Part shown: in pieces, positions 7,529-29,668 of the stretch
Layout of the letters: each line of letters starts with the position of its first letter
How positions within the stretch are numbered: position 1 is the stretch's first letter
From: Gemmatimonadota bacterium
GTDB lineage: Bacteria; Gemmatimonadota; Gemmatimonadetes; Longimicrobiales; RSA9
Assembly: GCA_040905425.1 (NCBI GenBank)
Contig: JBBDRO010000078.1
Span: 1-29,668 of the forward strand
Length of the DNA stretch: 29,668 nt
Direction: 5' to 3'
Made by a program: the position numbers and the translations under genes
The notes under the pieces: generated by a model
Database searches by the model: none
What the model saw: only the letters and a program-made list of their open reading frames with translations
What the model was told of the DNA's origin: nothing

Positions 7529-7540
7529 GGGAGTAGCAGA

Positions 7541-11160: not shown

Positions 11161-11210
11161 CGAGGGCCGCGAGGGGTGGAGCGGGAGACGCCCGCTAGAG
11201 CGGGGTCAAA

Positions 11211-11654: not shown

Positions 11655-11665
11655 CCTCGGCTCCG

Positions 11666-12118: not shown

Positions 12119-12190
12119 GATCGACCTCCACTGCGATTCTGGTGCGCCGTTGCGCGCCGTGCGCCGGACGCTTCAGTCTACGCAGAACCG

Positions 12191-12228
12191 TTTAAGGAAG
12201 CGGTGAAGCACAGATTAAGAGTGCTTCA
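12191..12228 (-). promoter_or_regulatory. Operator box C, between the Cys-rich gene and the kinase gene
   Basis: Minus strand: TGAAG-CA-CTCTTAAT-CTGTG-CTTCAC-CGCTTC-CTTAAA, then a TAGACT -10-like hexamer. Matches box B at all 19 non-spacer positions. Confidence 0.7.
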
Positions 12229-12319
12229 TTCGTCACAGGGACGTTGCCGGAGGGTATGTTGTCCATGTCGTGCGGTCTAGAGTACCTTCCAACCTCCACA
12301 CCGATTACGAGGGCGATTG

Positions 12320-13750: not shown

Positions 13751-15051
13751 TCCACGCCGGCCTCGTCCGCCGTCTGGTGGCGCTCCAGTTCCACACCCTG
13801 CAGCTCCAGCTCACTCTGCGGGATCCACAGCTGCATGAGCGGCACGCGGGAGAGGAAGAAGAAGACCGCGCCCAGCAGCACGCCCAGGAAGCCCAGCCCT
13901 ATGCCGATCTCCTGCCAGCCGAAGGGCACGTAGTCCAGCTCGTGGTAGATGGAGGGGTGCACGAGCAGGTAGCGCTCCAGCCACAGCCCCACCAGCAGGA
14001 TGCTCACCAGGAAGCTGTAGATGCGGGGGTTCTTCTTGGGCGCCACGCCGAGCAGCCCGAAGAACGGGATGACGAACACCATCACGCCCACGAGCTTGGC
14101 CACCACGTTGAAGGGCTCGTCGAAGCGGTGCACCACGTAGCTCTGCTCCAGCGGCAGCATGCCGTACCAGATGACAATGTACTGGCTGAAGAAGAGGTAC
14201 GCCCAGAAGACCACGAAGCCGAAGTTCAGCTTGGCAAGGTCGTGCATGGTGGTGGGCAGGATCCAGCGCTCCAGCTCGTGGCGCTCGCGCATGTAGAGCG
14301 TGAGCAGGCCCGTGGCGGCCAGGCCGCCCAGGAAGCCGCCCATGAAGACGAAGGGCCCCAGCAGCGTGCTGAACCAGTAGGGCTCCAGGGACATGATGAA
14401 GTCCCAGGAGAGCACGCTGAAGGCAATGGCCCAGACCATGGTCACGATGGGCGCCAGCACGCTCAGGCGCTTGTGGGCCAGCAGCTCCTCCGCCTGCTGG
14501 CCGCGCCAGTTGCGGGTCAGGCGCTCGGTGAGGGCGCGGCTCTCCGCCGGCGCGCCGGACTTCCAGAGCCCCATGTCCGGGCGCAGCGCCCAGTAGGCAA
14601 AGGCCAGGTCCAGGATGACCAGCCCGCCCATGAGCAGGAGCTGGCGCGTCCACATGAAGGGTACGTTCAGGTAGGCTTCCTTGCCGGCCACCGGATGCTC
14701 GATCCAGGGGAAGATGTGCTCCGCCCCCACCAGGATCGGGATCATGAGCAGGAAGGCCAGCGGCATGAAGGCCACGAAGGCCAGGGAGAAGCGTCGGAGC
14801 GGCCGCGACCACATGCCCTTGGCAATGGTCACCAGCACGGAGAGCATGAACGCGCCCTGGGCCAGGGCGGTGAAGAAGAGCCAGTTCTGCAGGTAAGCCA
14901 GGTAGGCGCGCGTGGGGTCGGCCAGCAGCGCCGCCACGAAGGCCACGGCGCCGATGAGCGCCAGGATCACCGCGCCCGCGGTGGCGAAGCGGGGTGCGGC
15001 GCCCAGATCCCTGACCGGCAGTGCGTGTAGCTGCGTTCCTCCGTGCGACAT
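13744..15051 (-). CDS. actF: Alternative complex III subunit F (NrfD-like membrane protein)
   Basis: Multi-TM protein. KEAYLNVPF, WDFIMSLEPYWFSTLLG, HDLAKLNFGFVVFWAYLFFSQYIVIWYG. Last gene of the act operon. Confidence 0.88.
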   Translation of the reverse strand: MSHGGTQLHALPVRDLGAAPRFATAGAVILALIGAVAFVAALLADPTRAYLAYLQNWLFFTALAQGAFMLSVLVTIAKGMWSRPLRRFSLAFVAFMPLAFLLMIPILVGAEHIFPWIEHPVAGKEAYLNVPFMWTRQLLLMGGLVILDLAFAYWALRPDMGLWKSGAPAESRALTERLTRNWRGQQAEELLAHKRLSVLAPIVTMVWAIAFSVLSWDFIMSLEPYWFSTLLGPFVFMGGFLGGLAATGLLTLYMRERHELERWILPTTMHDLAKLNFGFVVFWAYLFFSQYIVIWYGMLPLEQSYVVHRFDEPFNVVAKLVGVMVFVIPFFGLLGVAPKKNPRIYSFLVSILLVGLWLERYLLVHPSIYHELDYVPFGWQEIGIGLGFLGVLLGAVFFFLSRVPLMQLWIPQSELELQGVELERHQTADEAGVDY

Positions 15052-15052
15052 G

Positions 15053-15718
15053 CTAGCGCTCCTCCAGGCCGGTCGTGGCGGTGGGGGCCGCGGCCGTGTC
15101 CTGCGCCTCGGCCGCGGGCGCCGGCTCGGCGCCGCCCGCCTGGATCACCTCACGCAGGTAGCTCACGATGGCCCAGCGCTCCAGGTCCGTCGTGCGCGGT
15201 CCGTACGCGGGCATCATGCTCCGGCCCGCGTGGATGACGCCGTAGAGGTAGCCGTCCGCGCGCGCCACCGAGGCGGGCAGGGTCAGGTTGGTCACGAGCG
15301 CTGGGAACTTGCCCTCCTCACCCGGCTTGGTGACGATCGGGCCATCCCCCAGTCCCGTGGCACCGTGGCAGACGGCGCAGTGACGGTCGTACATGACCTG
15401 GCCGAGCTCCAGCAGCGCGGGGTCCGTCTGGTCGTACGGATTGGTGCCGTACGGGCCGGCGGCAAAGGCGTTCAGCGCCACCTCGCTGGCCTCCAGCGGC
15501 GGCAGGATCTTGCTCCCCGCGGGTGAGGCGAACGGCACCGCGCCCGGCGGCGGCGGCAGCGGCATCTCGTAGGGATCGAAGGCCGGCGACTCGTGCATGT
15601 ACGTGAACGTCGGGATCCTGTAGAGCACGCGTTCCTCGAACTCCGTGCAGCCGGCGCTCATGGCCACGGCCAGCAGGAGCGCGATGCCGGCGGCGCGCCG
15701 GCGGAGATCAGAGCGCAA
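15053..15718 (-). CDS. actE: Alternative complex III subunit E (monoheme cytochrome c lipoprotein)
   Basis: TTG start with SD GAGGAGG. Lipobox SAGC, YDRHCAVCHG, MMPAYG, RWAIVSYLR. Confidence 0.87.
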   Translation of the reverse strand: MRSDLRRRAAGIALLLAVAMSAGCTEFEERVLYRIPTFTYMHESPAFDPYEMPLPPPPGAVPFASPAGSKILPPLEASEVALNAFAAGPYGTNPYDQTDPALLELGQVMYDRHCAVCHGATGLGDGPIVTKPGEEGKFPALVTNLTLPASVARADGYLYGVIHAGRSMMPAYGPRTTDLERWAIVSYLREVIQAGGAEPAPAAEAQDTAAAPTATTGLEER

Positions 15719-16235
15719 CGGTCACCTCCTCGGCCCGATCCCGGACCGCTACTGCTCCGCTCTCGCGGAAGATGCCGGCCGCCTCGTCGCGGCGCGGGCC
15801 GTCCACCCACAGGCCGAAGCGGTCCGCGGTGAAGGACGGATCGTGTACCAGGCGCGCGCCGGGCCTGCGCGGCAGACGGGCATGGATGAAGAGCCCCAGC
15901 ACGGTGGACAGGGCACCGAACAGAATGGTCAGCTCGAAGGCAATGATGACCCAGGCCGGCATGGAGATGATGGGCTTGCCGCCCGTCACCAGCGGCCAGA
16001 CCAGGGACGTCCACGTGGGCAGCGCGAAGCCCGCCGCCGCGCCCGTGAGTCCCCCCACCAGGGTGTAGATGGGAATGGGGCTCCGCTTCTTGTGCAGGGC
16101 GTGCTCCAGTTCGTGGTTCGGGGCCGGGGCAATGGCCGTGATCTCCTTGATCCCCGCCGCGCGCAGCCGCTCGATGGCGGTCACGCTGTCCTCCACGTTG
16201 TCGAAAACGGCCAGGACGCCGGTGGCTTCACTCAT
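15708..16235 (-). CDS. actD: Alternative complex III subunit D (DUF3341)
   Basis: Start moved to ATG 16235 (ATGA overlap with the actC stop). WPLVTGGKP, FELTILFG, DPSFTADRFGL. Confidence 0.88.
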   Translation of the reverse strand: MSEATGVLAVFDNVEDSVTAIERLRAAGIKEITAIAPAPNHELEHALHKKRSPIPIYTLVGGLTGAAAGFALPTWTSLVWPLVTGGKPIISMPAWVIIAFELTILFGALSTVLGLFIHARLPRRPGARLVHDPSFTADRFGLWVDGPRRDEAAGIFRESGAVAVRDRAEEVTVAL

Positions 16236-17653
16236 GCCGAGCCCTCCGGGCCGCGCGTGATGGCGCCGTGGGAGTAAGCGCCGCCGCGCCCGCCTCCGCC
16301 GTCGCGGTCCCTGCCGGACACCGGTGCGGGGAGCACCTCCTTCAGCTCCGCCACCGAGACGGCGGGCAGCACCCTGATGAAGATCAGGAAGAACATGAAG
16401 AACCACGCAAAGCTCCCCGCCAGGATGGCCATCTCCACCCAGGACGGGTTGTAGGTGCGCCACTGCCACGGCTCGTACTCACGCGCCAGGCTGGTGACGA
16501 TGATCACGAAGCGCTCGAACCACATCCCGATGTTGATGAAGATGGTGATGACGAAGAGCGCCGGGATGCTGGTGCGGATCTGCCGCCACCACAGCAGCAT
16601 GGGGATGATGCCGTTGCAGATGAGCATGATCCAGGTGGCCCACCAGTAGCTGCCGAAGGCCCGGTTCCAGAAGGCTGCCCGTTCGGGCGTCTCCACGGAG
16701 TACCAGGCAATGAAAAACTCCGTCATGTACGCGTAGAAGACCACCATCCCGGTCACCAGCACCATCTTGGCCATGGCGTCGAAGTGCCGATCGGTGAAGT
16801 AGGCTTCCAGGCTGAAGATCTTGCGCATGGGGATGACAATGGTGAGCACCATGGCCAGCCCGGAGAAGATGGCGCCCGCCACGAAGTAGGGCGCGAAGAT
16901 GGTGGTATGCCAGCCCGGCACGATGGAGACGGCAAAGTCCCAGGACACCACCGAGTGCACGGAGAGCACCAACGGCGTGGCCAGGGCGGCCAACAGCAGG
17001 TATGCACGCGTGAAGTGGCGCCATTCGGTGTCGGTGCCGCGCCAGCCGAACGCCATGAGGGAATAGAGCTTCTTCCGCCAGGGCACCGTGGTGGCGTCGC
17101 GCGCCGCCGCGATGTCCGGGATCATGCCGACCAGGAAGAAGGTGGCGGACACGGTGAGGTAGGTGCCCACCGCGAAGACGTCCCACAGCAGCGGCCCGCG
17201 GAAGTTGGGCCAGAGGAGCCGCTGGTTGGGGTAGGGCAGCAGGTAGTAGAAGATCCAGGGGCGCCCCAGGTGGATGATGGGGAAGAGCCCCGCCGTGAGC
17301 ACCGCGAAGACCGTCATGGCCTCCGCCGCCCGGTAGATGGACTGCCGCCAGCGCGCCCGGAACAGGTAGAGCACGGCCGAGATGAGCGTGCCGGAGTGCG
17401 CAATGCCCACCCAGAAGACGAAGGTGGTGATGTAGGCGCCCCAGCCGATAGGGTTGGTGAGGCCGGACATGCCGATGCCCAGCACCACCTGCGTGGCCCA
17501 CGCCGCGGCGCCCAACGCCAGCACCGCCAGCACCACGCCCAGGATGATGAAGTAGCCGCGGCCCGGGCGGGCCAGGAGCTTCAGGACATCCCGGTTGACG
17601 TCCCCGTAGGACGCAATGTCCGGATGCGTCTCGGAGCGGATTATCCGTGCCAT
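16232..17653 (-). CDS. actC: Alternative complex III subunit C (NrfD/PsrC quinol-oxidising subunit)
   Basis: WGAYITTFVFWVGIAHSGTLISA, RAAEAMT, HLGRPW, LWDVFAV, SVHSVVSWDFA, PGWHTTIFAPYFVAGAIFSG, GMWFERFVII. Start ATG 17653. Confidence 0.95.
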   Translation of the reverse strand: MARIIRSETHPDIASYGDVNRDVLKLLARPGRGYFIILGVVLAVLALGAAAWATQVVLGIGMSGLTNPIGWGAYITTFVFWVGIAHSGTLISAVLYLFRARWRQSIYRAAEAMTVFAVLTAGLFPIIHLGRPWIFYYLLPYPNQRLLWPNFRGPLLWDVFAVGTYLTVSATFFLVGMIPDIAAARDATTVPWRKKLYSLMAFGWRGTDTEWRHFTRAYLLLAALATPLVLSVHSVVSWDFAVSIVPGWHTTIFAPYFVAGAIFSGLAMVLTIVIPMRKIFSLEAYFTDRHFDAMAKMVLVTGMVVFYAYMTEFFIAWYSVETPERAAFWNRAFGSYWWATWIMLICNGIIPMLLWWRQIRTSIPALFVITIFINIGMWFERFVIIVTSLAREYEPWQWRTYNPSWVEMAILAGSFAWFFMFFLIFIRVLPAVSVAELKEVLPAPVSGRDRDGGGGRGGAYSHGAITRGPEGSA

Positions 17654-17654
17654 G

Positions 17655-20600
17655 TCAGTGCCCCGCCCCCGCGTCATCCGCGTGCTCGGAGATGGATCTC
17701 AGATAGGTGATGGCGGACTGGGTGTTGAGCTGGTCCAGCACCCGGTAGCCGCGGCCCGAGGAGGCCAGCTGCGTGACGCGCGCAGCGGGGTCCTTCAGGT
17801 TGCCGAAGACAATGGCCTCACCCGGGCAGGTGGCGGCGCACGCCGGCACGATCTCCCCGTCGCCCACGCCGCGGTCCTCCAGGCGCGCGTTGTTCTCCGC
17901 GTCGCGGATCTTCTGCACGCAGAACGTGCACTTCTCCATGACGCCCTTCTCACGCACCGTGACGTCCGGGTTCAGCTGCCAGTTGAGCGGCTCCGGCCAC
18001 TCCCACGTGAACCAGTTGTAGGTACGCACCTTGTAGGGGCAGTTGTTGGCACAGTAGCGCGTGCCCACGCAGCGGTTGTAGACCTGCGCGTTCAGCCCGT
18101 CGGGCGTGTGGTACGCCGCGTACACCGGGCAGACCGGCTCGCACGGCGCGTTGGAGCACTGCTGGCACATCATGGGCAGGAACCGCGTCTGCAGTTCCTC
18201 GGGATGCTCCGGGTCCGACTCGAAGTAGCGCTCGATGCGGATCCAGTGCAGGATGCGCCCCTTGGCCACCTGCTCCGGCCCCACCACGCCCACGTTGTTC
18301 TCGGCGTAGCAGGCGGTGATGCAGGCGCTGCAGCCGGTGCAGCGCTCCAGGTCAATGGCCATGCCCCAGCGGGGGTGCTCCTCCGAGTACTCGCCGTAGT
18401 GCGTGCCCGGCGGCGGGAAGGCCTGCGGTGAGGCCGGCGCCACGAGCGGCTCCCAGCCGCCGCCGCCCTGCAGCGTCTCCACCGTGGCGTCCTGCGGGTG
18501 CGGGATGAAGTGCGGATCGTCACTGTGATCCACGGGCTCGGGCGGCGCGGCGGTGATGCCGGCGGCCAGCACCGCGCCGCGGCCCACGTCCGCCGAGCGG
18601 GCGTCCTCCAGGCGCATGGCCTGGGCAATGCCGCGGTTGTGCTGGTCCGATTCCAGCCCCTGCTGCGTGGGGCGCTCCCAGCGGCCGGTGCTGCGCACGG
18701 AGGCGCGCGTCTGCTGCCAGACGAACGCCCCGGAGGCCGCCTCCACCATGGGCGCGAGCAGCCGGGCGGCGTTCACGCCGCGCTCCCGCGCATACTGGCC
18801 CAGCCCCTCGTGCCCCTGGCCGAGCTGGATGGCAATGGTGTCTGGCCGCACGCCGGGATGGCGCCACACGGGCAGCTCCACGGTCCCCTGCGGCGTCTCC
18901 ACCTCGGCAATGTGCCCGTTGTCCAACCCCAGCTCCTCGGCGGCCGCGGGGTTCATTTCCACCCAGGAGTTCCACGTCCACTTGGAGACGGGATCGGGCA
19001 GCTCCTGGAGCCAGAGCCGGTTGGCCAGCCGGCCGTCATAGTACTTGTAGGACGGGTAGACAATGAGGTGGAAGTCCCCGTCACCGGCAAAGGGCGCGGG
19101 CTGCAGCTGCTCCATCCCCACCTGCGCGGCGGTGAGCGCGGCCAGGGAGGTGTTCGCGGCGCCGTTCGAAGCGACGTTCGCGCCGGCGTTGTTCGCGGCG
19201 TTCGTCAGCACCAGGCCGGTCTGCAGCGCCTCGCGCCACCACGTCTCGAAGTCGGCGCCGGCGCCGGCGGCGGCGTAGACCGTGTCCCGCCAGCGCGTGC
19301 GCATGTAGTCGTAGAAGGTATTGCCCTGCGTGGGCAGGCTCACGCCGCCGCGGCGCGCCACGGAGAGCAGTACGTCACCCGTCTGCTTGCTGTCGAAGAC
19401 CGGCACCATGACGGGCTGGACGAGCGCCGTGACGCCGCTGCGCGGCTCCAGGTCTCCCCAGCTCTCCAGGAAATGGTGATCGGGCAGCAGCAGGTGGGCG
19501 GTCTCGCTCGTCTCGTCCAGCATCGGCGAGAAGGAGGCAATGAACGGCACGGCGGACAGCGCCTCCCGCACCGCCTCCTGGTCCGGCAGCCCGTAGAGCG
19601 GGTTCGGGCCGTGCACCAGCAGGAAGCCCACGCCCTGCGCGCGCATACGCTCCAGCAGCGCCTGCATGTCGGCGTAGGAGCCGCCCGTGCCCGCATGGCG
19701 CTCAACGGCGTCCGTGCGGATGGTGGTACCCACGTTGCCAGCCACGCGGTTCAGCATGGCTACCGCCATGGCCAGCTGCGTGGCCGCACCGTGCTGCGAG
19801 GCCACACCGGGTCCGGCCGCCAGCGAGGCGCCGCCGTTGGCGAAGCGCGCCGCCACCTGGCGGAGGCGCTCCGTGGAAACGTCGGCCGCCTGCGCGGCGG
19901 CGTTCACGTCCACACCGGCCAGCGCCGCGCCGCCCGCGCCCGCGCCGCCGCCCGCTTCCGCCACCAGCCGCGCCAGCGCGGCCGCCACGAGGTGCTCCGT
20001 GCCCGGCCGGCACGGGATCCACTCGTCCGCGTTCATCTCCGTCAGACTCTGGTGCGGGCCCACCGCAATGTAGTGGCCCCGCCGGCCGCGATCGTAGGCG
20101 TGCGCCTGCACGAAGCCGTGGCTGTAGTCCACGGGGGAGAGCCACGTCTCCATGAAGTCCGCGCCGAAGGTGATGACCACTTCGGCCCGGCTGAAGTCGT
20201 GCACCGGCACGCCGTCCACGCCGTAGACCGCCGCGGCGGCGGCGCGCAGCGGCTCGTAGGCAAAGGTCTCCCAGCGGACGCGCTCGATCTGGTAGGCGGC
20301 GGCGAACTCGTCCAGCAGCTGGTCCATGGTGCCGGTCACGGCGTGCGTCAGGATGACGCCCGTGCCCCGGCGCTGCTCCAGGACGCGCGAGAGGCGCTCC
20401 TCGGCCTCGTCCCACAGCAGCTTGTCCCAGCCCTCCCCGTTGCGGGCCAGCGCCTGCGGCACCCGGTCGGGGTCGTAGAGGCCGTGCAGCGACGCCTGGC
20501 CGCGCGCGCACAGGGCGCCGTGCGAGATCGGCGAGAGCGGATTGCCCTCCGCCTTCACGGCGCGGCCTTCCCGGGTGCGGATGTTCATGCCGCAGCCGGC

Positions 20601-20777
20601 GGGGCACTCCCGGCAGGTGGTGCGGTACCAGGTGGCCATCCCCGGCACGATCTCCTCGTGCGGGATGACGTAGGGCAGGAGCGTGTCCGTGGGCCCACTC
20701 CCGCACCCGGCCACGCCGGCCCCCACGCCCGTGGCGCCCAGGACCTTCAGGAAATCGCGCCTCTCGATGTTGCTCAT
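17655..20777 (-). CDS. actB: Alternative complex III subunit B (molybdopterin-oxidoreductase-like domain fused to Fe-S domain)
   Basis: Tat motif ERRDFLK, lipobox VAGC, WLQELPDPVSK. Fe-S motifs CTGCSACITAC, CQQCSNAPCEPVCP, CVGTRYCANNCP, CTFC and CAATCP. Also an N-terminal CRECPAGC...LCARG. Confidence 0.93.
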   Translation of the reverse strand: MSNIERRDFLKVLGATGVGAGVAGCGSGPTDTLLPYVIPHEEIVPGMATWYRTTCRECPAGCGMNIRTREGRAVKAEGNPLSPISHGALCARGQASLHGLYDPDRVPQALARNGEGWDKLLWDEAEERLSRVLEQRRGTGVILTHAVTGTMDQLLDEFAAAYQIERVRWETFAYEPLRAAAAAVYGVDGVPVHDFSRAEVVITFGADFMETWLSPVDYSHGFVQAHAYDRGRRGHYIAVGPHQSLTEMNADEWIPCRPGTEHLVAAALARLVAEAGGGAGAGGAALAGVDVNAAAQAADVSTERLRQVAARFANGGASLAAGPGVASQHGAATQLAMAVAMLNRVAGNVGTTIRTDAVERHAGTGGSYADMQALLERMRAQGVGFLLVHGPNPLYGLPDQEAVREALSAVPFIASFSPMLDETSETAHLLLPDHHFLESWGDLEPRSGVTALVQPVMVPVFDSKQTGDVLLSVARRGGVSLPTQGNTFYDYMRTRWRDTVYAAAGAGADFETWWREALQTGLVLTNAANNAGANVASNGAANTSLAALTAAQVGMEQLQPAPFAGDGDFHLIVYPSYKYYDGRLANRLWLQELPDPVSKWTWNSWVEMNPAAAEELGLDNGHIAEVETPQGTVELPVWRHPGVRPDTIAIQLGQGHEGLGQYARERGVNAARLLAPMVEAASGAFVWQQTRASVRSTGRWERPTQQGLESDQHNRGIAQAMRLEDARSADVGRGAVLAAGITAAPPEPVDHSDDPHFIPHPQDATVETLQGGGGWEPLVAPASPQAFPPPGTHYGEYSEEHPRWGMAIDLERCTGCSACITACYAENNVGVVGPEQVAKGRILHWIRIERYFESDPEHPEELQTRFLPMMCQQCSNAPCEPVCPVYAAYHTPDGLNAQVYNRCVGTRYCANNCPYKVRTYNWFTWEWPEPLNWQLNPDVTVREKGVMEKCTFCVQKIRDAENNARLEDRGVGDGEIVPACAATCPGEAIVFGNLKDPAARVTQLASSGRGYRVLDQLNTQSAITYLRSISEHADDAGAGH

Positions 20778-20790
20778 CAGCTCTCTAACA

Positions 20791-21324
20791 CTAGTAGTGG
20801 CAGACGAAGCAGTCGGTGCGCGCCTCGTTCACGCGATGACACTCCACGCACCATCCCATGCGGAGTGAGCTGGCCTGCTCGATGACGACCATCTCCTCCA
20901 CGGGCCCGTGACACTCCTGGCACTCGAAGCCGGCCTTCATGTGCCGCATGTGCGGGAAATGCACGTGGTCGGGCAGATCGTAGATGCGCTTCCAGGGGAT
21001 GGGCACGCCCTGCGCCCAGTACTCACGGAGCTTCAGGACCTCGGGATGGTCGGCCCGCACCAGCGGCACGCCGCCGGGGAAGTGGCAGCCGGCGCACACC
21101 TGTACGGAAGGGATGCCGGCGTCCTGGGAGCGGTCCGCCGAGGTGTGGCAGTACTGGCACGGGATCTGGCTCGTGGCGCCCGCGTGCAGGTCATGCGGAA
21201 AGGCAATGGGCTGCACGATCGGGCTGGCCGCGAAGGGCCCGACCGTGGCTGCCAGGATCCCGGCGCCGGCAAGCACCAGGACGCCGACGGCGGCGGCCGC
21301 CACTGCCCATCTGGGAATTTGCAT
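20791..21324 (-). CDS. actA: Alternative complex III subunit A (pentaheme cytochrome c)
   Basis: Five CxxCH (CQYCH, CAGCH, CQECH, CVECH, CFVCH). QPIAFPHDLHAG, LPDHVHFPH, MGWC. One N-terminal TM. Start moved to ATG 21324. Confidence 0.93.
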   Translation of the reverse strand: MQIPRWAVAAAAVGVLVLAGAGILAATVGPFAASPIVQPIAFPHDLHAGATSQIPCQYCHTSADRSQDAGIPSVQVCAGCHFPGGVPLVRADHPEVLKLREYWAQGVPIPWKRIYDLPDHVHFPHMRHMKAGFECQECHGPVEEMVVIEQASSLRMGWCVECHRVNEARTDCFVCHY

Positions 21325-21464
21325 TGCATACCTGTACTGGCGTCTTGGCTGACCCCCGGCGTCACGCACACCGGCGGGAGCCGGATGGCGGGACGGCACG
21401 TGGACGGCGCGTCCCCCCTCCGGAGCGCCGGGAATCTGGCTGTCGGGCTACAGCCATGCAACCC

Positions 21465-22598: not shown

Positions 22599-24734
22599 TC
22601 AGGAACTGGCGGCCAGGCGGCCGGAGGTGTCCTGGTCCTCCGCCGACGCGCCGCGCGCGTCCGCGGGCAGGATCACTGTGAAAGCGGTGCCCTCACCGTG
22701 GGTGCTGGTCACCTCGATGGTGCCGCCCAGCAGGCGCACCAGCTTACGGGTGATGGAGAGGCCCAGACCGGTGCCGCCGTACTCCTTGGTGTGGGTCTGA
22801 TCGATCTGCCTGAAGTCATCGAAGATGGCGTCCAGGTCATCCGCCTTGATGCCGATTCCCGAATCCTCCACCACCAGGTGAAGCCCGCCGCTCTCCAGCT
22901 GGCGGGCGCGCAGGGCAATGGAGCCCTCGGGCGTGAACTTGATGGCGTTGGAGAGGAGGTTCAGCAGCACCTGCTTCACCTTGGTACGGTCCGTCCGCAG
23001 GACCGGCAGCTCGGCCGGGGCGTCGAACGCGTAGCGCAGCTTCTTGCGCTCCACCATGGGACGGATGGTGTCGGAGACCTCTTGGAGCACTTCTGCCACC
23101 GTGACCGGCTCCACGTGGAGCGGCATCTTGCCGGCCTCTATCTTGGACAGGTCCAGGATGTCATTGATGAGCTCCAGCAGGTGCTGGCTGGTGTCATTCA
23201 CCTTGCCCAGTGACTCCTCCTGCTGGTGCGTCAGGTGCCCGTAGATACGCTCCCGCAGCAGGGACGTGTAGCCCAGGATGACGTTGATGGGCGTGCGCAG
23301 TTCGTGGCTCATGTTGGCCAGGAACTCACTCTTCAGCCGGGACGCCTTTTCCAGCTCGAAGCTCTGCCACTCCAACTGACGGTTGCGCGCCTCCAGCTCC
23401 ATGGTGGCGTGGCGGATGCGGTCCTCGAGCTCGTCGTTGAGCTGCTGGAGCTCGCGGGCCAGCCGCTCGTTCTCCTCGGTCTCCGTGAGGTCGTGCAGCA
23501 CGCTCACGATGGCGGTGGGCTCGCCGCGCGCGTTCAGGATCTTGCTGCTCACCACCTCCGCGGGGAATTCGTGGCCGTCCGCCGGGTCCACCATGGTGAG
23601 CCGCTCGCCGTGCCGCTGCTCGAGACGCAGCAGGAAGTTGCTGATGTGGGTGGTGAACTTGGTGTCGTTGGCCTGGATGAGCGGCCGGTGTCCCGACGGA
23701 TGATCCGGGCCGGCCACGAAGAGTCGGTCCGCCTCCGGGTTCAGCAGGATGATGTTGGAGTGCTCGTCGGTGACCAGGATGGGGTCACCCACATTCTCCA
23801 GGATGACGTTCAGCCGGTCCCGCTCCTGGCGCACGTCGTGCTCGGCCAGCCGGGACCGGTTGAACTGCACCTCCAGCTCACCCACGGCCCGCTTCAGGTC
23901 CGTGATGTCCCGCAGCACGGAGAGGACGGCCGCCTCCCCCGCGGCCGGGATGGGCATGCACATCACCTCGAAGAGCAGGTCCGAGCCCTCCGCCGTGTCC
24001 ACCAGGTTCAGCTCCCGCCCGCCACCGGTGGCGGCGCCGCCGATCACCGTCTGGGTGAGGAAGGAACTGAAGAGCAGATTGTTGACGTCAATGGCCCGGC
24101 GCCGCCCCTCGCTGTCATCGGCCGACGCCGTGAAGAGCTGCTCGGCACGCCGGTTGGCCAGCAGGATGTCATTGCGGGAGTTCGTCAGGATGATGGGATC
24201 CGAGAGCGCGTTGATGATCTCGGTGAGCAGGTCCCGCTGGCGGTCGTAGCGCCGGATGGCGGAGCGGAGCTGCCCCACCTGGGCGCAGCGCTGGAGCGCG
24301 GCGCCGCACCGCTGGAAGGCGGCTCCCACCAGCGCGGGGCCGCCCTCCAGCGCGTCGGCCTCGATGGCCACCAGCCCGCGGAACGGCTCGCTGGCGCCCT
24401 GGAACGGGAAGGCGGCCACCGCATCGAAGCCGATGGCCGCCGCCGCTTCACCGCGCAGCACCGCTGGCGCGGTCATGGTATCGAAATTCACCCGTAACTC
24501 GGAGGCCTCGGAGCCCAGCTGGTCCAGGACATCCCCGACCTGCCCCTCGAGCACCCCCGTGCCCGCTCCCTGGAACGAACCGTCCATCCGCAGCACCACC
24601 ACCCCCGCCCCACCGCCGGCCGCCGCCATGCTGCGCTGCAGGGTCAGCGAGCACGCCTCCGACACATCGTCGACGCGCGCGATCTGATCGAGCAACTCGG
24701 CGACCAGGGATTCGGATGGGGCGTTGGCGCCCAC
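22599..24734 (-). CDS. Cytoplasmic sensor histidine kinase (GAF-like, two PAS-like, HisKA, HATPase)
   Basis: Repeated PAS-like starts (IINALSDPIILTN; ILENVGDPILVTD) ending RDIT/HDLT. KSEFLANMSHELRTP, NLLSNAIKF, DSGIG, GGTGLGL. No TM seen. Confidence 0.92.
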   Translation of the reverse strand: MGANAPSESLVAELLDQIARVDDVSEACSLTLQRSMAAAGGGAGVVVLRMDGSFQGAGTGVLEGQVGDVLDQLGSEASELRVNFDTMTAPAVLRGEAAAAIGFDAVAAFPFQGASEPFRGLVAIEADALEGGPALVGAAFQRCGAALQRCAQVGQLRSAIRRYDRQRDLLTEIINALSDPIILTNSRNDILLANRRAEQLFTASADDSEGRRRAIDVNNLLFSSFLTQTVIGGAATGGGRELNLVDTAEGSDLLFEVMCMPIPAAGEAAVLSVLRDITDLKRAVGELEVQFNRSRLAEHDVRQERDRLNVILENVGDPILVTDEHSNIILLNPEADRLFVAGPDHPSGHRPLIQANDTKFTTHISNFLLRLEQRHGERLTMVDPADGHEFPAEVVSSKILNARGEPTAIVSVLHDLTETEENERLARELQQLNDELEDRIRHATMELEARNRQLEWQSFELEKASRLKSEFLANMSHELRTPINVILGYTSLLRERIYGHLTHQQEESLGKVNDTSQHLLELINDILDLSKIEAGKMPLHVEPVTVAEVLQEVSDTIRPMVERKKLRYAFDAPAELPVLRTDRTKVKQVLLNLLSNAIKFTPEGSIALRARQLESGGLHLVVEDSGIGIKADDLDAIFDDFRQIDQTHTKEYGGTGLGLSITRKLVRLLGGTIEVTSTHGEGTAFTVILPADARGASAEDQDTSGRLAASS

Positions 24735-24753: not shown

Positions 24754-25056
24754 TCAGCTCAGTTCGTCGAGCCGACGTTTCAACTCCGCGTTCTCCGCCA
24801 TGAGCCGATCCATATCGGACGTGCCCTGGGCGCCGGGGCCCATCATCGGCCGGGCCGCGAATCCCGTGATCCCGATGGCCTCGGCAAAGCGCAGGTAGGT
24901 TTCCACGGAAGCCACCACGATGCGCGCTTCCACGCTGACCAGGTCAATGCCAACGAGCGATACGCGAACGTATGCGTCGATGACGATGCCCTTGTCCAGT
25001 ACGCGGTCCAGTACATCGATCAGGCTACTGCCCGCGGGTGCCCTTTCAACCGCCAT
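24754..25056 (-). CDS. gvpA: Gas vesicle structural protein GvpA
   Basis: [62 protein letters not shown]. Confidence 0.95.
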
Positions 25057-25399
25057 CGTTGCTCTCCCTCACGTGGGTGGATCGGGGCTCGAGCTCCCTG
25101 CGCTCGAGCGAGTCCAACTTGGTCTGCAGTGCGGCCAGACGCTCGTTGATCTGCGTCAGTTCCGCCGGAGGTAACTCCGGCTGCCCGTAATAGGGATCCG
25201 TGCGCCACCAGTTCATCCCGATCTCCTCGGCCTTGTCGATGGAGCACACCATCAAGCGGATGCGGATGGTGAGCAGCTCCACGTTGGCCAGATTGATCTT
25301 GATGTCACCTGCAACTACGAGTCCCTTGTCCAGGATCCGGTCGAGGATGTCGACCAGCCCCTGGGACCGTTGCGGCCCGAGTTCGTATTGTGTGGCCAA
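25046..25399 (-). CDS. gvpJ: Gas vesicle protein GvpJ
   Basis: [58 protein letters not shown] start with SD AAGGGGAG. Confidence 0.9.
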
Positions 25400-25411
25400 T
25401 GAACTCCCCTT

Positions 25412-25810
25412 TTAGAGAAGTTTACCCAGCGGCCCGAGATCGACGTTCAGGTCCTCACCTTCGAGACCGAATGCCGCCTTGACCTCTTCCAGTCGTCCTT
25501 CCAGGCGCTGCAGCGCCAGCCCCAGGCGCTCCACCTGCTCATCCGTCAAGCCGCCGCCCTCCATGCGCCGCACCGCCTGGTGCTCCATCACCTGCCGGAG
25601 CAGCTCCACGAGCGTGAGGACCAGGCGGGCCACCCCGGCCTCGATGTCTTCCGGCTCGGCTTCGAGGCGCCCCGCCAGCGCGGGCGCGAGCGCAGCGATC
25701 TCCGCCTCGATCTCCGTAGCGACCCGCTCGGCCTCGAGCCGCTCCTGCTCCAGCCGCTCACCGTCGCGGCCGTCATCCGGCGGCGCCCCGCCGGAGGCGG
25801 CCCGGCTCAT
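25412..25810 (-). CDS. gvpK: Gas vesicle protein GvpK
   Basis: GVARLVLTLVELLRQVMEHQAVRRMEGGGLTDEQVERLG...DLNVDLGPLGKLL. ATGA overlap with the upstream gene. Confidence 0.93.
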   Translation of the reverse strand: MSRAASGGAPPDDGRDGERLEQERLEAERVATEIEAEIAALAPALAGRLEAEPEDIEAGVARLVLTLVELLRQVMEHQAVRRMEGGGLTDEQVERLGLALQRLEGRLEEVKAAFGLEGEDLNVDLGPLGKLL

Positions 25811-26484
25811 GTGAACGAGTACGGCGGCCAGGGCCCCGTCACCGCAAAGCTACCGACCGCCCGCTCACGGGCCGTGCGTTGCAGCGCGTCCCGCAGCGGC
25901 GGCGCGTCGGCGCGACCCACCAGGTAGGCCGCGCTGAGCCAGGCCGGCCGCGCATCCACTACCTCCTGCCGGATCCAGTCGGCCCCCGCGGCATGGAGCG
26001 CATCCGCGAGCGCATCCGCGTCGGCGGCGGTGGCACGCCGTTCCGTATGCCGCTCGAGCAACGAGCGCATGTACGCCGTGCCATCCATCGCGGCTCCGCC
26101 ACGCACGGACCGGGCCGCTGACCCCGCGCGGGCCGGTTCGGCCCGTACGCCCAGTTCCACCATGCCGGCCAGACGCTCCAGCGTTTCGTGCCACTCCGCC
26201 GCCCGCTCGCGCAGCACCCGGTGGGCGGCAGCCGTATCCTCCAGCCACTGTCCGAAGCGCAGCGGCACCGGCGTGACGCCGCCCTCCAGCGCCGCGGCCA
26301 CCACGGCGTGATGGGCCTGTGCCGCCGCGGCGCCCGGGGAGGGCGCATGATGATGAGCGCTCACCCAGAGCGCCAGCCCCTCCGCCTCCACGGCGTGCGT
26401 CGGCGCCCCCTCCAGACCGCGCACATCGGGCGCGGGCAGAACCCCTTGCGGTAGCACGGCGTAAGCGACGAGGCCCTCAGCCAT
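25807..26484 (-). CDS. GvpL/GvpF family gas vesicle protein
   Basis: LVAYAVL, HHAVV, TPVPLRFG, ELGVR, AAYLV, TGPWPPYSF. Start moved to ATG 26484 (ATGGCTGA overlap, identical to the 26841/26848 junction). Confidence 0.88.
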   Translation of the reverse strand: MAEGLVAYAVLPQGVLPAPDVRGLEGAPTHAVEAEGLALWVSAHHHAPSPGAAAAQAHHAVVAAALEGGVTPVPLRFGQWLEDTAAAHRVLRERAAEWHETLERLAGMVELGVRAEPARAGSAARSVRGGAAMDGTAYMRSLLERHTERRATAADADALADALHAAGADWIRQEVVDARPAWLSAAYLVGRADAPPLRDALQRTARERAVGSFAVTGPWPPYSFT

Positions 26485-26848
26485 CCCGCGCGCGATCATC
26501 CTGCCCGGCGGCGTCACGCCCGGCTGCGTCACGCCCGGCTGCGTCACGCCCGGCTGCGTCACGTCCGGCTGCGTCACGCCCGGCGGCGTCACGTCCGGCG
26601 GCGTCACGGCCGGCGGCTCTACGCCCTGGAGTGCGCAGGGGAAGCGCCTGCTTCTGGCGCATCGTTTCGGCGGAGGCCAGGAGCACGCGCAGGCCCACGT
26701 AGACCAGGTCGATGCCCGCCACGCTGATGATCACGTCCCCGTGAATCAGAGCGCCCCGGTCCAGAACCCGATGCACCAGCTCCACCATGCCCAGGCGCTC
26801 CTCCGCCTCCACCCGGGTCAGCTCGCGCGCCGGCCGCTCGTCAGCCAT
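26477..26848 (-). CDS. GvpA-family minor gas vesicle protein (GvpS-like) with a repeat tail
   Basis: ELVHRVLDRGALIHGDVIISVAGIDLVYVGLRVLLASAETM, followed by an (AAGRD)n tail. Confidence 0.85.
   Translation of the reverse strand: MADERPARELTRVEAEERLGMVELVHRVLDRGALIHGDVIISVAGIDLVYVGLRVLLASAETMRQKQALPLRTPGRRAAGRDAAGRDAAGRDAAGRDAAGRDAAGRDAAGRDAAGQDDRARDG
26503..26617. repeat. 15-bp tandem repeat, 7 full copies plus a partial
   Basis: Unit G(C/T)CCGGC(G/T)GCGTCAC starts at 26503, 26518, 26533, 26548, 26563, 26578 and 26593; partial copy at 26608. Confidence 0.95.
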
Positions 26849-27632
26849 CCGACTCCCCCACGAAGCGGTACGGGGCCCACGGCCCGGATGCGTCCACCCG
26901 GATGCCGCGGGGACCCAGCCGGCCGCGCGCCGCCTGGATGGTGCTCATCAGCTCGTCCTCGGCGCCCTGGGCCACCAGCGCCGCCGCGTGCAGCACCACG
27001 GGCACCTCGGCACCGCCTTCCGGAATGGGCAGCACCTTGATGGCCTCGGCCACGCCGCCGACCGTGTCCAGCAGCGCCTGCGCCTCCCGGCGGGCCGCGG
27101 CGCCGGCGGCGCCCTTGAGCAGTTCGGCGCGGCGGCGCTCCAGGAGAAAGCGGCGGCCCGGCGCGGCCGCGGCGATCTCCTCATCCACGCGCCGCACCTC
27201 GGGATCCAGCTCGGCGGCGTGCCTGCACACCTCGTCCGCGTCGTAGGAGACCTTGAGGTCCCATTCGCGCCGACCCGCGAAGCGCTCCATGCGCCCCCGG
27301 ATGGCCTCCCCCCGGCCGCCCGCCTCCTCCGCCATGGCCTCCACCGAGGAGTAGAGCGTGAACAGGGGCGCGGGGACGATCTCGGCGTGATCCACGAACC
27401 ACGCCACGACCCGCTCGTGGGCCAGCCCCTGCTCGCCCACCCAGGCCAGGTCACCGGTGCGCGCCTCCACCCGCTCGGCGCCGTACTCGGCGGCCGGGAG
27501 CAGGCTGAACGCCGCCGCGAACCCCTCGCACGGATGCAGGTCCACCGGGGCGTCCGCCACCCCGGCCAGTCCCTCGTCGGGCAGCGCCGCCGCCGGCGGC
27601 ACGAAGCCGTAGAGGTAGACAACGTGGCTCAA
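26841..27632 (-). CDS. GvpL/GvpF family gas vesicle protein
   Basis: VYLYGFV, LAHERVV, EWDLKV, PGRRFLL, HAAALV, SGPWAPYRF. Start moved to TTG 27632 (SD GGAGG; TTGA overlap with the ATPase stop). Confidence 0.9.
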   Translation of the reverse strand: MSHVVYLYGFVPPAAALPDEGLAGVADAPVDLHPCEGFAAAFSLLPAAEYGAERVEARTGDLAWVGEQGLAHERVVAWFVDHAEIVPAPLFTLYSSVEAMAEEAGGRGEAIRGRMERFAGRREWDLKVSYDADEVCRHAAELDPEVRRVDEEIAAAAPGRRFLLERRRAELLKGAAGAAARREAQALLDTVGGVAEAIKVLPIPEGGAEVPVVLHAAALVAQGAEDELMSTIQAARGRLGPRGIRVDASGPWAPYRFVGESDG

Positions 27633-29434
27633 GAGATCTGCCTCCAACTGGAAAGAAATGCCGCCAGCGCTTCGGGGCCCGTGGGGGGCCGGGGCTCCGT
27701 GGGCGCTCGGAAGTGAACGGCCGTCGGGCCCGTGGCGCCCCTATCCTGCCCCCTGTCCACGGCGCCGTCGCAACCGGCCAGGTTGTGAATGTGGGCCGCC
27801 ACCGCGATCCCCGCACCCTCGAGCGCGGCCAGCAACCGCGCGGTCTCGGCCTCCACCAGTTGCCCGCTGGTGCTCACGACCAGCGCTCCGCTGTGGGCGG
27901 GATCGCGCAGGCGCTCCTGCAGCTTCCGGAGGCGCCGTGCCAGGTCCACCGTGGCCTGCACGGTGGTGTCCAGCGCCCCCGCCCCGCCGAGTCCACCCAG
28001 GATCCTGAGCAGCGCGCGCGTCCAGCCCAGCGCCGTGGCGGGCATGGCCAGCAGGCGCAGCAGGTGGCCGGTCGGGGCCGTGTCCACCACCACGGTGGTG
28101 CCCTCCGCCACCTCGTCCAGCAACTCCGCCAGCGCCGCCAGTTCGTCCACGCCCGGTGGTGCCAGCTCCCACAGCGAGTCCATGACGCGCCGGTCCAGCG
28201 CGGCGCCGCGCCCCACCCCCACCCGCTCCAGGACGTCCTCCACCTCGTCGCGCCACCCTTCGGCCAGCGCGGCGAAGCGCGCCGGCGCGTCCACCTCCCG
28301 CACGCGCAGACCGGGCGCCACCGCCACGCCGCCGGGCGGCACGGGCCGCGCCAGCACGTCCGCCAGCGACCCCGCGGGGTCGGTCCCCAGCAGCAGCACG
28401 CTGCGGCTGGCCGCCAGCCGCAGCGCCACGGCGCAGGCGCAGGTGGACTTCCCCACGCCGCCCTTGCCCGTCACCAGCAGAAGCCGGAGGCCCAGGCCGT
28501 CCACCCAGGTGGGGGCATCCTCGGCCGGTGCCGAGCGCGGCGGAGGTGCTTCCGCGGCAGGGGGCGGTTCGCCACCCGCTGCCGCTCCCCAGGCGCGCAG
28601 GCCCTCACAGCCCGCCGCCGGCGCCCCGCCGTCCAGCACCACCACCGGCGGGCCGCCGTCCCGCTCGGGCGCCGGCCCACCCACGCGCACGCGCGCCACC
28701 ACCGTGCAGCCGCGCTCCGTCAGGCGGGCCAGCAAGCGCTCGGTCTCGGCGGCCACCACCGCGCCCGGTCGGTCGACCACCACCCAGACCGCCTCTTCGA
28801 GCAGTGCCCGGAAGCGCGCGGTGGCCGCGTCCAGCCGCTCGAGCGCCGCGCCGCCGGGCGTGGCCGAGACGTGGCGCACCAGCGCCGCCTCCACCGCCGC
28901 GGCCTTCTCGGCCATCGCGGCGAAGGCGCAGCCCCACCCCTCGAGCAGGTCGGCCGCCTCCAGCAGACGCAGCGTGTGGCCGGTCGGCGCCGTGTCCACC
29001 ACCAGGCGCTCGGCACCGTCGTGGAGCTCCGCCAGGCGGAGGGCGGCCATGGCCTCGTCCACACCGGGCAGCGCCGGTTCCAGGAAGCCGCGCACCTCGT
29101 CAGGCCGCAGATAGGTGCCGCGCTCCACCAGATCGGCCAGCGCGGCGCCGTCGCCAGCCTTCCAGGCCGCGGCCCGGGCGTCGGCGTCCAGCTCCTCCAC
29201 CACCAGCGCCGCGCCGCAGACGGCGCGTGCCTCCCCGCCGGTGAGGGACACACCGAAGAGGTCGGCCAGGGAGTGCGCGGGGTCCACGGAGAGGATCCTG
29301 ACGGGGCTGGCATGGTCGGCCAGCGCCAGGGCCAACGCCCCCGCCGTCGTCGATTTGCCCACGCCTCCCTTGCCGGTAACAAAGACGGGGCGAGCCGCGG
29401 GGATGAGGTCCAGCAGGGAATCCAGCGGCGTCAC
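27629..29434 (-). CDS. Tandem two-domain ArsA/Get3-family ATPase
   Basis: Two deviant Walker A motifs GKGGVGKST, two switch-I motifs (SVDPAHSL, TDPAGSL), two DTAPTGH and two PGVDE. Confidence 0.92.
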   Translation of the reverse strand: MTPLDSLLDLIPAARPVFVTGKGGVGKSTTAGALALALADHASPVRILSVDPAHSLADLFGVSLTGGEARAVCGAALVVEELDADARAAAWKAGDGAALADLVERGTYLRPDEVRGFLEPALPGVDEAMAALRLAELHDGAERLVVDTAPTGHTLRLLEAADLLEGWGCAFAAMAEKAAAVEAALVRHVSATPGGAALERLDAATARFRALLEEAVWVVVDRPGAVVAAETERLLARLTERGCTVVARVRVGGPAPERDGGPPVVVLDGGAPAAGCEGLRAWGAAAGGEPPPAAEAPPPRSAPAEDAPTWVDGLGLRLLLVTGKGGVGKSTCACAVALRLAASRSVLLLGTDPAGSLADVLARPVPPGGVAVAPGLRVREVDAPARFAALAEGWRDEVEDVLERVGVGRGAALDRRVMDSLWELAPPGVDELAALAELLDEVAEGTTVVVDTAPTGHLLRLLAMPATALGWTRALLRILGGLGGAGALDTTVQATVDLARRLRKLQERLRDPAHSGALVVSTSGQLVEAETARLLAALEGAGIAVAAHIHNLAGCDGAVDRGQDRGATGPTAVHFRAPTEPRPPTGPEALAAFLSSWRQIS

Positions 29435-29470: not shown

Positions 29471-29668
29471 CTACTCGTGCCCGAAGTCCACGTCCACCGA
29501 CGCTTCGCCGGGGCTGGCCACCCGGGGACTCCGCTCGCCGTCCTCCCCGTCATCCGCATCCGCTCCCTCCGCAACCTCCCCCGGCGCCAGGCCCGGCGGG
29601 GCGTCCGCCGCCTCGTCCGCCGCCTCGTCCGCCGCCTCGTCCGCCGCCTCGTCCGCCGCCTCGTCCGC
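29471..29668 (-). CDS. 3' end of an acidic low-complexity protein (partial; upstream gene of the same operon)
   Basis: Frame open from the window edge to TAG 29473-29471: (ADEA)n...DAPPGLAPGEVAEGADADDGEDGERSPRVASPGEASVDVDFGHE*. Ends 36 nt before the ATPase start. Confidence 0.6.
   Translation of the reverse strand, partial: ADEAADEAADEAADEAADEAADAPPGLAPGEVAEGADADDGEDGERSPRVASPGEASVDVDFGHE
29602..29668. repeat. 12-bp perfect tandem repeat (at least 5 copies, runs off the edge)
   Basis: CGTCCGCCGCCT at 29602, 29614, 29626, 29638 and 29650, partial at 29662. Encodes DEAA repeats on the minus strand. Confidence 0.95.

Follow-up and report, generated by a model that had tools for sequence, protein, structure and literature searches.

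Why does a gas-vesicle operon carry, among its gvp genes, the gene of a two-domain ATPase of the Get3/ArsA family, and what could this protein do there? The question of how the extremely hydrophobic GvpA stays in solution and enters the growing shell holds back the design of acoustic reporter genes, and a Get3-type ATPase that turns up in gvp clusters across many phyla is an obvious candidate for handling GvpA. The linkage itself is not new, since two-domain ArsA homologues in gvp operons were already published by authors who proposed that they supply the energy for a step in making gas vesicles (Castillo & Saier 2010, PMC2963123). The available text of that paper describes the members of its clusters 4 and 6 as two-domain proteins of about 600-650 aa without the ArsA cysteines and without arsR; the ATPase studied here is likewise a 601-aa, two-domain protein that lies in a gvp cluster, lacks the ArsA cysteines and has no arsR nearby. 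The sequence-only reading of this DNA knew of no demonstrated role for such an ATPase, and it did not mention that the linkage and the energising proposal had been in print since 2010. What the present analysis adds is that the gene always stands between gvpG and gvpL, that it was lost repeatedly, and that its internal duplication arose separately.

The locus belongs to an uncultured sediment bacterium of the Gemmatimonadota type. In the window, that is, the whole 29,668-nucleotide stretch that was analysed, 25 open reading frames, chosen for their third-position GC, were searched against Pfam. The first GvpL/F paralogue after the ATPase (L2), the GvpS/M-like protein, a second GvpL/F paralogue (F3), GvpK, the GvpJ-like protein and GvpA all scored above their own cut-offs. 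The features are as follows:

29471..29668, minus strand: 3' part of gvpG (on the contig to 30123, across a run of N); PF05120
27629..29434, minus strand: tandem Get3/ArsA-fold ATPase, 601 aa; PF02374 twice, TIGR00345
26841..27632 (alternative start TTG 27647), minus strand: GvpL/F paralogue (L2); PF06386, 151.8 bits
26477..26848, minus strand: GvpA-family minor protein, GvpS/M-like; PF00741, 49.4 bits; top match GvpM, below cut-off
25807..26499 (start uncertain: ATG 26499 or 26484), minus strand: second GvpL/F paralogue (F3); PF06386, 123.9 bits
25412..25810, minus strand: GvpK; PF05121, 113.7 bits
25046..25399, minus strand: GvpJ-like GvpA-family protein; PF00741, 61 bits
24754..25056, minus strand: GvpA, the major shell protein; NF006874 GvpA, 112.5 bits (cut-off 100)
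22599..24734, minus strand: PAS/PAS histidine kinase, 19 nt 3' of gvpA; Pfam scan

The tandem ATPase gene thus has gvpG on its 5' side and a gvpL/F paralogue on its 3' side, in the order gvpF-G-ATPase-L-S-F-K-J-A-PAS kinase, and every junction is an overlap or a gap of at most 36 nt. The operon had been described as truncated; it is indeed cut at the edge of the window, but it is complete on the contig, where gvpG and, further upstream, gvpF (PF06386, 269 bits) come before a divergent gene marks the end. GvpG matches PF05120 with 52.3 bits over its N-terminal 88 aa (on locus L009) and has an acidic tail with ADEA repeats. As claimed from the letters alone, the ATPase stop overlaps the start of gvpL/F: we found TTGA at 27632-29, with GGAGG 8 nt 5' of TTG 27632. 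This TTG is probably the L2 start; the in-frame alternative TTG 27647 would give a 19-nt overlap with the ATPase. The chain of overlaps and tiny gaps described for the S-like, F/L, K, J and A genes was confirmed by measuring the junctions: 8 nt of overlap between L and S, about 8-23 nt between S and F3 (the F3 start being uncertain), an ATGA in which the GvpK start overlaps the F3 stop, a 12-nt gap between K and J, an 11-nt overlap between J and A, and 19 nt between gvpA and the kinase. We conclude that the ATPase is co-translated with the upstream gvpG and the downstream gvpL/F paralogue; its translational link to the gvp genes stands. The C-terminus of the GvpS/M-like protein is (AAGRD)x7, encoded by a 15-bp repeat in 8.3 copies (26503-26626); the long F3 reading frame, from GTG 26607, crosses this repeat in another frame, and its PF06386 match begins at residue 47. 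The PAS/PAS histidine kinase is a conserved member of such clusters: of 30 further gvp loci retrieved from the phylum, 28 gave a tblastn match to it at E ≤ 1e-20, as did the Rokubacteria and Vicinamibacterales loci.

The tandem architecture, and the automatic naming of its relatives as 'arsenite-transporting ATPase', could suggest a true ArsA, an As(III)/Sb(III)-stimulated pump ATPase that entered the operon by chance. On the curated ArsA equivalog model TIGR04291 (cut-off 650), however, the protein reached 128 bits and the seven other gvp-linked tandem ATPases tested reached 117-238 bits, whereas 11 of 12 non-gvp tandem ATPases scored 685-935 bits. The metalloid-cysteine motifs GACTTE, SPCTEE and ASCLGP were read off 11 bona fide ArsA proteins, with an alignment of PDB ArsA used as well. 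In agreement with the earlier claim, the columns SGACTTE and SPCTEE are PGVDE in both halves of the ATPase, and the third cysteine (ASCLGP) is missing too. No ars family, and hence no arsB, acr3, arsC, arsD or arsR as had been noted, was found by Pfam among the 25 window ORFs; a true arsR-arsD-arsA-acr3 operon lies elsewhere in the same genome (contig C3), its arsA scoring 784 bits on TIGR04291. In the phylogenetic tree the gvp-linked ATPase is separated from ArsA, and its N and C halves group together, apart from the ArsA halves. A topology with a single shared duplication was rejected (p-AU 0.0008), and the two halves arose through a duplication separate from that of ArsA. Because of the model score, the absent cysteines, the phylogeny and the separate, true ars operon of this genome, we conclude that the ATPase is Get3-type, as first read, and not an arsenite-pump ATPase; a chance-acquired ArsA is extremely improbable.

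The protein matched PF02374 (ArsA_ATPase) with 232.5 bits in two stretches (cut-off 24.3) and TIGR00345 (GET3_arsA_TRC40) with 227.6 bits (cut-off 135). Each half has a P-loop GKGGVGKS, the switch I DPA, PGVDE and the switch II DTAPTGH, all unchanged in both halves among 131 aligned relatives. Since the deviant Walker A, the switch I Asp and switch II are kept at both sites in these relatives, the ATPase is most likely a working two-site enzyme that would cycle between open and closed states. Its AF2 model (pLDDT 90.4, pTM 0.92) gave closed ArsA 9nbo as the top fold match in Foldseek (TM 0.69/0.72) and Chlamydomonas ArsA1 with TM 0.58, and each half matched Get3. In a PDB sequence search 5zme, 'ATPase ARSA1', a chloroplast tail-anchor targeting factor, came first with 139 bits; ArsA reached 85-89 bits and Get3 about 75 bits. 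The helical subdomain segments are longer than those of ArsA, and their ILMFVW fraction (0.31-0.41 vs 0.24-0.33 in ArsA) resembles that of single-domain Get3-like proteins; in the AF2 model only two helices follow switch II. The CxxC zinc motif is absent from the whole 601-aa sequence, and the pseudo-dimer fusion may make a zinc clamp needless. Profile searches gave no TIGR02640 or AAA_5 match for the ATPase, and weak ParA/MinD/CbiA matches at the P-loop. The latter, and membership of the same SIMIBI class, would fit a ParA/MinD-like ATPase that positions, spaces or segregates gas vesicles, but the full-length match is to ArsA/Get3 and not to ParA, and ATP-dependent dimerisation is not available as a surface switch to a protein whose two halves are already fused. 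We therefore regard a positioning function as very improbable.

Homologues are not mostly scattered outside gvp clusters. A search of 401 genomes from the phylum gave 12 homologues (E ≤ 1e-40). Each of them is flanked by gvpG and gvpL and has gvpA-family genes at a distance of 1-3 kb; such genes occur in just 30 of the 401 genomes, and the linkage is therefore far beyond chance. Across prokaryotes, five of 80 sampled ArsA/Get3-family loci were gvp-linked (three in Acidobacteriota, one each in Rokubacteria and Chloroflexota), and these five matched the query with the highest significance (tblastn, 8e-42 to 2e-26) once bona fide ArsA, with E-values in a similar range, is set aside. In 17 of 17 gvp-linked loci examined, the downstream GvpL/F paralogue is directly 3' of the ATPase. 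The relatives of the ATPase are thus confined to gvp clusters and occupy the same operon position each time. This distribution bears on the idea that the ATPase is merely co-expressed with gvp genes and serves in general to target membrane proteins, tail-anchored or other, an idea for which the Get3 fold and the 5zme match speak. A housekeeping factor of this kind would be widespread and unlinked, whereas the homologues occur in 12 of the 401 genomes and inside gvp clusters only, and we consider this explanation improbable.

About 15 otherwise syntenic gvp clusters of the phylum, including that of the nearest relative (L018), do not contain the ATPase. Presence and absence require at least five changes (gain or loss) on the Gvp tree, four of them forced by well-supported branches, and related bacteria appear to have dropped the gene several times. 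This repeated loss from otherwise intact clusters argues that the ATPase is an accessory factor and not a core one; any role it has must be dispensable or replaceable.

GvpN is an AAA+ ATPase thought to power shell growth. As first noted, it was not seen here, and it is absent from the completed operon on the contig as well; the best match to GvpN (TIGR02640) in the source genome was 26.7 bits (cut-off 266.8). In the phylum GvpN was found in none of 29 gvp-bearing genomes, with or without the ATPase, and in a Chloroflexota cluster the ATPase adjoins a bona fide GvpN (387.5 bits, cut-off 266.8), together with Hsp20, CDC48 (928 bits) and a GvpL/F-DnaJ fusion. The suggestion that the ATPase acts instead of GvpN thus fails in the form in which it was made. 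The GvpN-less clusters are gas-vesicle clusters predicted from their genes.

We favour, with modest confidence, the reading that the protein is a gvp-operon-specific, single-chain Get3/ArsA (SIMIBI) pseudo-dimer and an accessory client-holding ATPase for shell assembly; a chaperone role for Gvp proteins is plausible. With ATP bound and the protein closed, both helical subdomains would join into one composite binding surface, on which a gas-vesicle protein could be held by a hydrophobic stretch. As client, either GvpG, through the hydrophobic helix at its N-terminus, or one of the GvpA-family subunits A, J and S is a candidate. Once ATP is hydrolysed, the client would be let go at the nucleation or growth complex of GvpF/L/G/K, and the ATPase would improve the yield or fidelity of shell assembly without being indispensable. 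The chaperone genes around the Chloroflexota ATPase speak for this reading; the missing CxxC motif, the presence of just two helices after switch II and the 15 clusters of the phylum that manage without the gene weigh against it. According to the available text of Iburg et al. 2024 (PMC11445434), GvpA needs chaperoning, and GvpF and GvpG, gene neighbours of the ATPase here, are named for it. That these two are proposed as GvpA chaperones themselves also fits a different function, in which the ATPase holds no hydrophobic client and acts in assembly or remodelling on the accessory scaffold (GvpF/L, GvpG, GvpK), where it might free subunits bound to GvpF/L or return them for reuse. The downstream GvpL/F paralogue is the sole neighbour kept in all gvp-linked loci, overlapping or nearly so, but GvpL2 showed no obvious difference in similarity between clusters with and without the ATPase, and we consider a purely scaffold-directed role unlikely.

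A more specific form of the client-holding reading, which we offer tentatively and as possible at best, concerns the GvpN-less clusters. There the Get3-like pseudo-dimer would be the sole dedicated NTPase and a membrane-free version of GET. As an ATP-gated holdase, it would cover the N-terminal helix of GvpG or the hydrophobic face on GvpA-family subunits and pass these clients to GvpF/L, which would serve as a docking platform where protein meets gas and not at a lipid bilayer. If this were true, the natural occurrence of sister clusters with and without the ATPase would point to a non-essential booster of assembly that can be tuned, and engineered gas-vesicle reporters could be equipped with it. 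With about nine gvp genes, one ATPase and no GvpN, GvpC or Hsp20, the locus is a small test system, and natural sister clusters missing just the ATPase make a clean comparison with and without it feasible.

Compared with the clusters of Castillo & Saier, the locus has the gene set of their acidobacterial example (two L/F copies with J, K and M, as far as the available text of PMC2963123 describes it), but lacks GvpN and Hsp20, and its host is of a phylum not listed in that text. With GvpN the ATPase shares that it is an NTPase encoded in gvp clusters, although its fold class is unrelated. The tandem A1-A2 architecture is common to ArsA (E. coli R773, 1f48; L. ferriphilum, 9nbo), whose closed form is the best fold match, but the ATPase fails the curated model, has no metalloid cysteines and has no ArsD, ArsB or Acr3 partner nearby. 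With Get3/TRC40, including Chlamydomonas ArsA1 (5zme/5zmf), it shares the fold, the deviant Walker A, DPA, PGxDE, DTAPTGH and a helical subdomain more hydrophobic than that of ArsA; it differs in having no CxxC zinc clamp, a shorter helical subdomain and no GET receptor genes nearby. Chlamydomonas ArsA1, the best PDB sequence match, is a fused pseudo-dimer like the ATPase. The presumed client, finally, would not be a membrane protein, as for Get3/TRC40, but the shell protein of a protein-bounded gas compartment.

The Get3-like ATPase is part of the gas-vesicle operon of the window. The contig that carries it (C78; 96,948 bp, of which the window makes up bases 1–29,668) belongs to a high-GC host genome of 4.1 Mb that is 97% complete. 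The stretch is contained in eight listed sequencing runs, all of them DNA runs from sediment or soil metagenomes, with no RNA run among them. The genes of the cluster, with the kinase that follows them, are:

27629–29434, minus strand: ATPase, 601 aa; two PF02374 ArsA_ATPase stretches (232.5 bits) and TIGR00345
26841–27632 or 27647, minus strand: GvpL/F paralogue (L2); above Pfam cut-off
26477–26848, minus strand: GvpA-family S/M-like gene; above Pfam cut-off
25807–~26499, minus strand: second GvpL/F paralogue (F3); above Pfam cut-off
25412–25810, minus strand: GvpK; above Pfam cut-off
25046–25399, minus strand: GvpJ-like gene; above Pfam cut-off
24754–25056, minus strand: GvpA; above Pfam cut-off, and NF006874 at 112.5 bits (cut-off 100)
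22599–24734, minus strand: PAS/PAS histidine kinase, 711 aa; above Pfam cut-off

The gvpG gene is cut by the window edge; the contig upstream holds gvpG (PF05120, 52 bits) and a well-conserved gvpF (PF06386, 269 bits), and a divergently transcribed gene limits the cluster on this side. The gvpG stop is separated by 36 nt from the GTG start of the ATPase. The sequence-only reading had described a TTGA shared by the ATPase stop and the gvpL/F start, and a chain of overlaps or tiny gaps from there through the S-like gene, F/L, K and J to A. Indeed, TTGA was found at 27632–27629, with GGAGG 8 nt upstream of the TTG (an alternative in-frame TTG start lies at 27647), and each measured junction agreed with that description: overlaps of 8 nt for L/S, ~8–23 nt for S/F3 (depending on the F3 start), ATGA for F3/K and 11 nt for J/A, and a gap of 12 nt for K/J. 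Beyond that chain, 19 nt separate gvpA from the kinase. The F3 start is uncertain because of a 15-bp tandem repeat (26503–26626, 8.3 copies) that supplies the C-terminal (AAGRD)x7 of the GvpS/M-like protein and whose other frame reads as PGVTQ repeats, stretching the apparent ORF of this next gvpL/F gene. A second repeat, with a 12-bp unit (29602–29668 and on along C78 to about 29770), has at least 5.6 copies at 100% matches and gives GvpG an acidic (ADEA)n tail; the window edge falls within this repeat, which is interrupted just past the edge by a run of N, either an assembly break or masked sequence.

The PAS/PAS kinase was matched in 28 of the 30 other fetched gvp loci of the phylum (tblastn, E ≤ 1e-20) and was also found beside gvpA/J in Rokubacteria and Vicinamibacterales loci. 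It has the appearance of a constant regulatory component of such gvp clusters. The match in L022 is a weaker one, on the side of gvpF. No response regulator adjoining the kinase was seen in the window. Elsewhere, at 13744–21399 (minus strand) and 4839–10894 (plus strand), the window holds a respiratory gene set and, separately, an RND efflux system of the OEP-HlyD-AcrB type. The respiratory set consists of a 1040-aa molybdopterin-oxidoreductase/4Fe-4S fusion, a multihaem cytochrome c, an NrfD-type membrane subunit and a c-type cytochrome, and presumably resembles alternative complex III.

The ATPase passed the model of the TRC40/GET3/ArsA subfamily (TIGR00345: 227.6 bits, cut-off 135) and failed the equivalog model of the arsenite-pump ATPase ArsA (TIGR04291: 128 bits, cut-off 650). 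Among 19 tandem ATPases from the fetched loci, all seven gvp-linked proteins reached 117–238 bits in TIGR04291, whereas 11 of the 12 proteins without gvp linkage scored 685–935 bits and the remaining one 518. It had been proposed that PGVDE stands in both halves in place of the metalloid cysteines of ArsA. This was upheld in an alignment of the halves, where SGACTTE and SPCTEE, together with ASCLGP beyond switch II, are present in 11 bona fide ArsA proteins, whereas every gvp-linked ATPase has PG[VIAL]DE in each half and lacks the third cysteine; an alignment with ArsA from the PDB agreed. The reported absence of ars genes from the window holds for the 25 ORFs searched (chosen by third-position GC), none of which matched an ars family. 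The host has a canonical arsR-arsD-arsA-acr3 operon on another contig, C3 (locus L128, 4804–8776, minus strand), with ArsA at 784, Acr3 at 428 and ArsD at 112 bits, all above the cut-offs; two HcsL-like CC-star proteins precede this operon. We conclude that the ATPase is not an arsenic pump.

Our survey of the phylum covered 401 genomes, of which 396 are at least 90% complete. GvpA-family genes were present in 30 genomes and ATPase homologues (E ≤ 1e-40) in 12, from 9 genera (two of the 12, G097 and G157, are flagged as unpublished). All 12 homologues share a contig with gvp genes at a distance of 1–3 kb. Mapping 31 fetched loci by tblastn gave a single conserved order, gvpF-G-[ATPase]-L-S-F-K-J-A, with the ATPase between G and L wherever it is present; 15 more clusters share this order but lack the ATPase, L coming straight after G. 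The search outside the phylum was a P-loop-keyed scan that gave at least 80 ArsA/Get3-family loci, a sample and not a census; among the matches listed, gvp genes were found at 5 of 80 (Thermoanaerobaculia, Ca. Angelobacter, Vicinamibacterales, a Rokubacteria MAG and an Anaerolineales MAG), and in all five the tandem ATPase stands directly upstream of a GvpL/F paralogue.

The cluster nearest to that of the window (L018, same family) is without the ATPase, and the genus g106 has clusters of both kinds. On a Gvp tree (concatenated GvpF1, K, A, J and L2 from 32 clusters; quick search, unrooted), ATPase presence requires at least five changes, four of them forced by well-supported branches, and all four clusters from other phyla carry the ATPase. 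In trees of the halves, ATPase sequences of one taxonomic family also cluster together. As the Gvp tree is unrooted, we infer rather than read from it that the ATPase is an ancestral gene that was lost several times. In locus L047 (genome G271; 10500–12372, minus strand) the gene is apparently split: an ORF of 326 aa with a single P-loop covers only the C half, and a separate stretch upstream matches the N half. The sister genome has an intact gene of 624 aa (L046). Either the gene is decaying towards loss, by a frameshift or as a pseudogene, or the assembly is wrong here.

For the origin of the tandem arrangement, a careful tree was built from 77 half- or single-domain sequences, with unpublished genomes left out. 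The gvp-linked halves (12 N and 12 C) form one exclusive group (96/86), and the ArsA N halves form a clade (100/100) within an ArsA-only part of the tree. A constraint setting all N halves against all C halves was rejected (AU test, delta lnL 106, p-AU 0.0008), with groups that were named after sight of the first tree and with the reservation that gene conversion between halves could mimic the rejection. Unless such conversion homogenised the halves, the gvp-linked duplication and fusion would thus have arisen apart from that of ArsA. A constraint holding all tandem halves together against 24 single-domain rows was not rejected (delta lnL 5.9, p-AU 0.30; L082, L103 and L119, fragments of ArsA halves, were grouped as such), and we therefore do not place the gvp-linked clade closer to single-domain Get3-like proteins than to ArsA.

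The AlphaFold2 model of the ATPase, made from a 131-row alignment, had a pLDDT of 90.4 and a pTM of 0.92. Its first Foldseek match was the closed ArsA of L. ferriphilum (TM 0.69/0.72), followed by open ArsA structures, Chlamydomonas ArsA1 (0.58) and Get3 structures covering one half each. The sequence ranking in the PDB differs from this fold ranking: 5zme 'ATPase ARSA1', which we take to be a chloroplast tail-anchor targeting factor, reached 139 bits, ArsA 85–89 and Get3 ~75. All 131 sequences keep the GKGGVGK P-loop, DPA and DTAPTGH unchanged in both halves, and both nucleotide sites thus look catalytically competent. Compared with ArsA, the helical segments that follow switch I and switch II are longer and have a higher ILMFVW content (0.31–0.41 versus 0.24–0.33), similar to the segments of single-domain Get3-like proteins; they might form a candidate client-binding surface. 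A complex prediction for the ATPase with the downstream GvpL/F paralogue, run without controls, gave a score of 0.00 and a mark of 0.32, a result to which we give no weight. CxxC is absent from the 601-aa sequence. Two cysteines of the N half, C73 and C276, are at least 90% conserved in the closest relatives (40–49% identity) and absent from more distant gvp-linked ATPases of the phylum. The Get3 hallmarks applied as membership criteria were taken from excerpts of Barlow et al. 2023 (PMC10248533).

GvpN, the AAA+ ATPase of gas-vesicle clusters, had not been seen in the window, and it had been suggested that the ATPase acts alongside it or in its place. A TIGR02640 search (E ≤ 1e-10) of 29 genomes of the phylum with gvp genes (G291, with a weak PF00741 match, was omitted) yielded no GvpN, the best match in the host genome reaching 26.7 bits. 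Since clusters without the ATPase lack GvpN too, the ATPase is no simple substitute for it, and this part of the proposal was not borne out. Outside the phylum, the Anaerolineales MAG has a large gvp cluster (L096, 597–14532) in which a true GvpN (387.5 bits) accompanies the tandem Get3-like ATPase. This cluster also encodes GvpF, GvpG, GvpA, GvpO, Hsp20, a CDC48-family AAA ATPase (927.6 bits) and a fusion of GvpL/F with a DnaJ J-domain, which makes the neighbourhood of the ATPase chaperone-rich; GvpL/F, GvpS, GvpF and GvpK follow the ATPase.

Linkage is good evidence for a role of the ATPase in gas-vesicle biogenesis, and a putative holdase mechanism can reasonably be supposed. According to excerpts of Iburg et al. 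2024 (PMC11445434), GvpA needs chaperoning, a role assigned there to GvpF and GvpG. No paper was found that brings 'gas vesicle' and 'Get3' together; 'gas vesicle' and 'tail-anchored' co-occurred only through an Msp1 citation in the same excerpts, and among the titles found for 'gas vesicle' and 'Gemmatimonad' none was on the subject. The consulted sections of Castillo & Saier 2010 (PMC2963123) report that gvp clusters from Bacteroidetes/Chlorobi, a Geobacter, cyanobacteria and an acidobacterium contain two-domain ArsA homologues, note that the cysteines and arsR are missing, and propose that these proteins energise a step in gas-vesicle formation; their cyanobacterial, Chlorobi and Geobacter examples were not among our 80 matches listed. 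New here are the fixed operon position, the inferred repeated loss, the independence from GvpN, the probably separate duplication and the conserved PAS kinase at the cluster end. The ATPase is thus a member of a published class, the gvp-associated two-domain Get3/ArsA-fold ATPases, and compared with that class as those sections present it, it comes from a new phylum and from an unusually lean, GvpN-less cluster.
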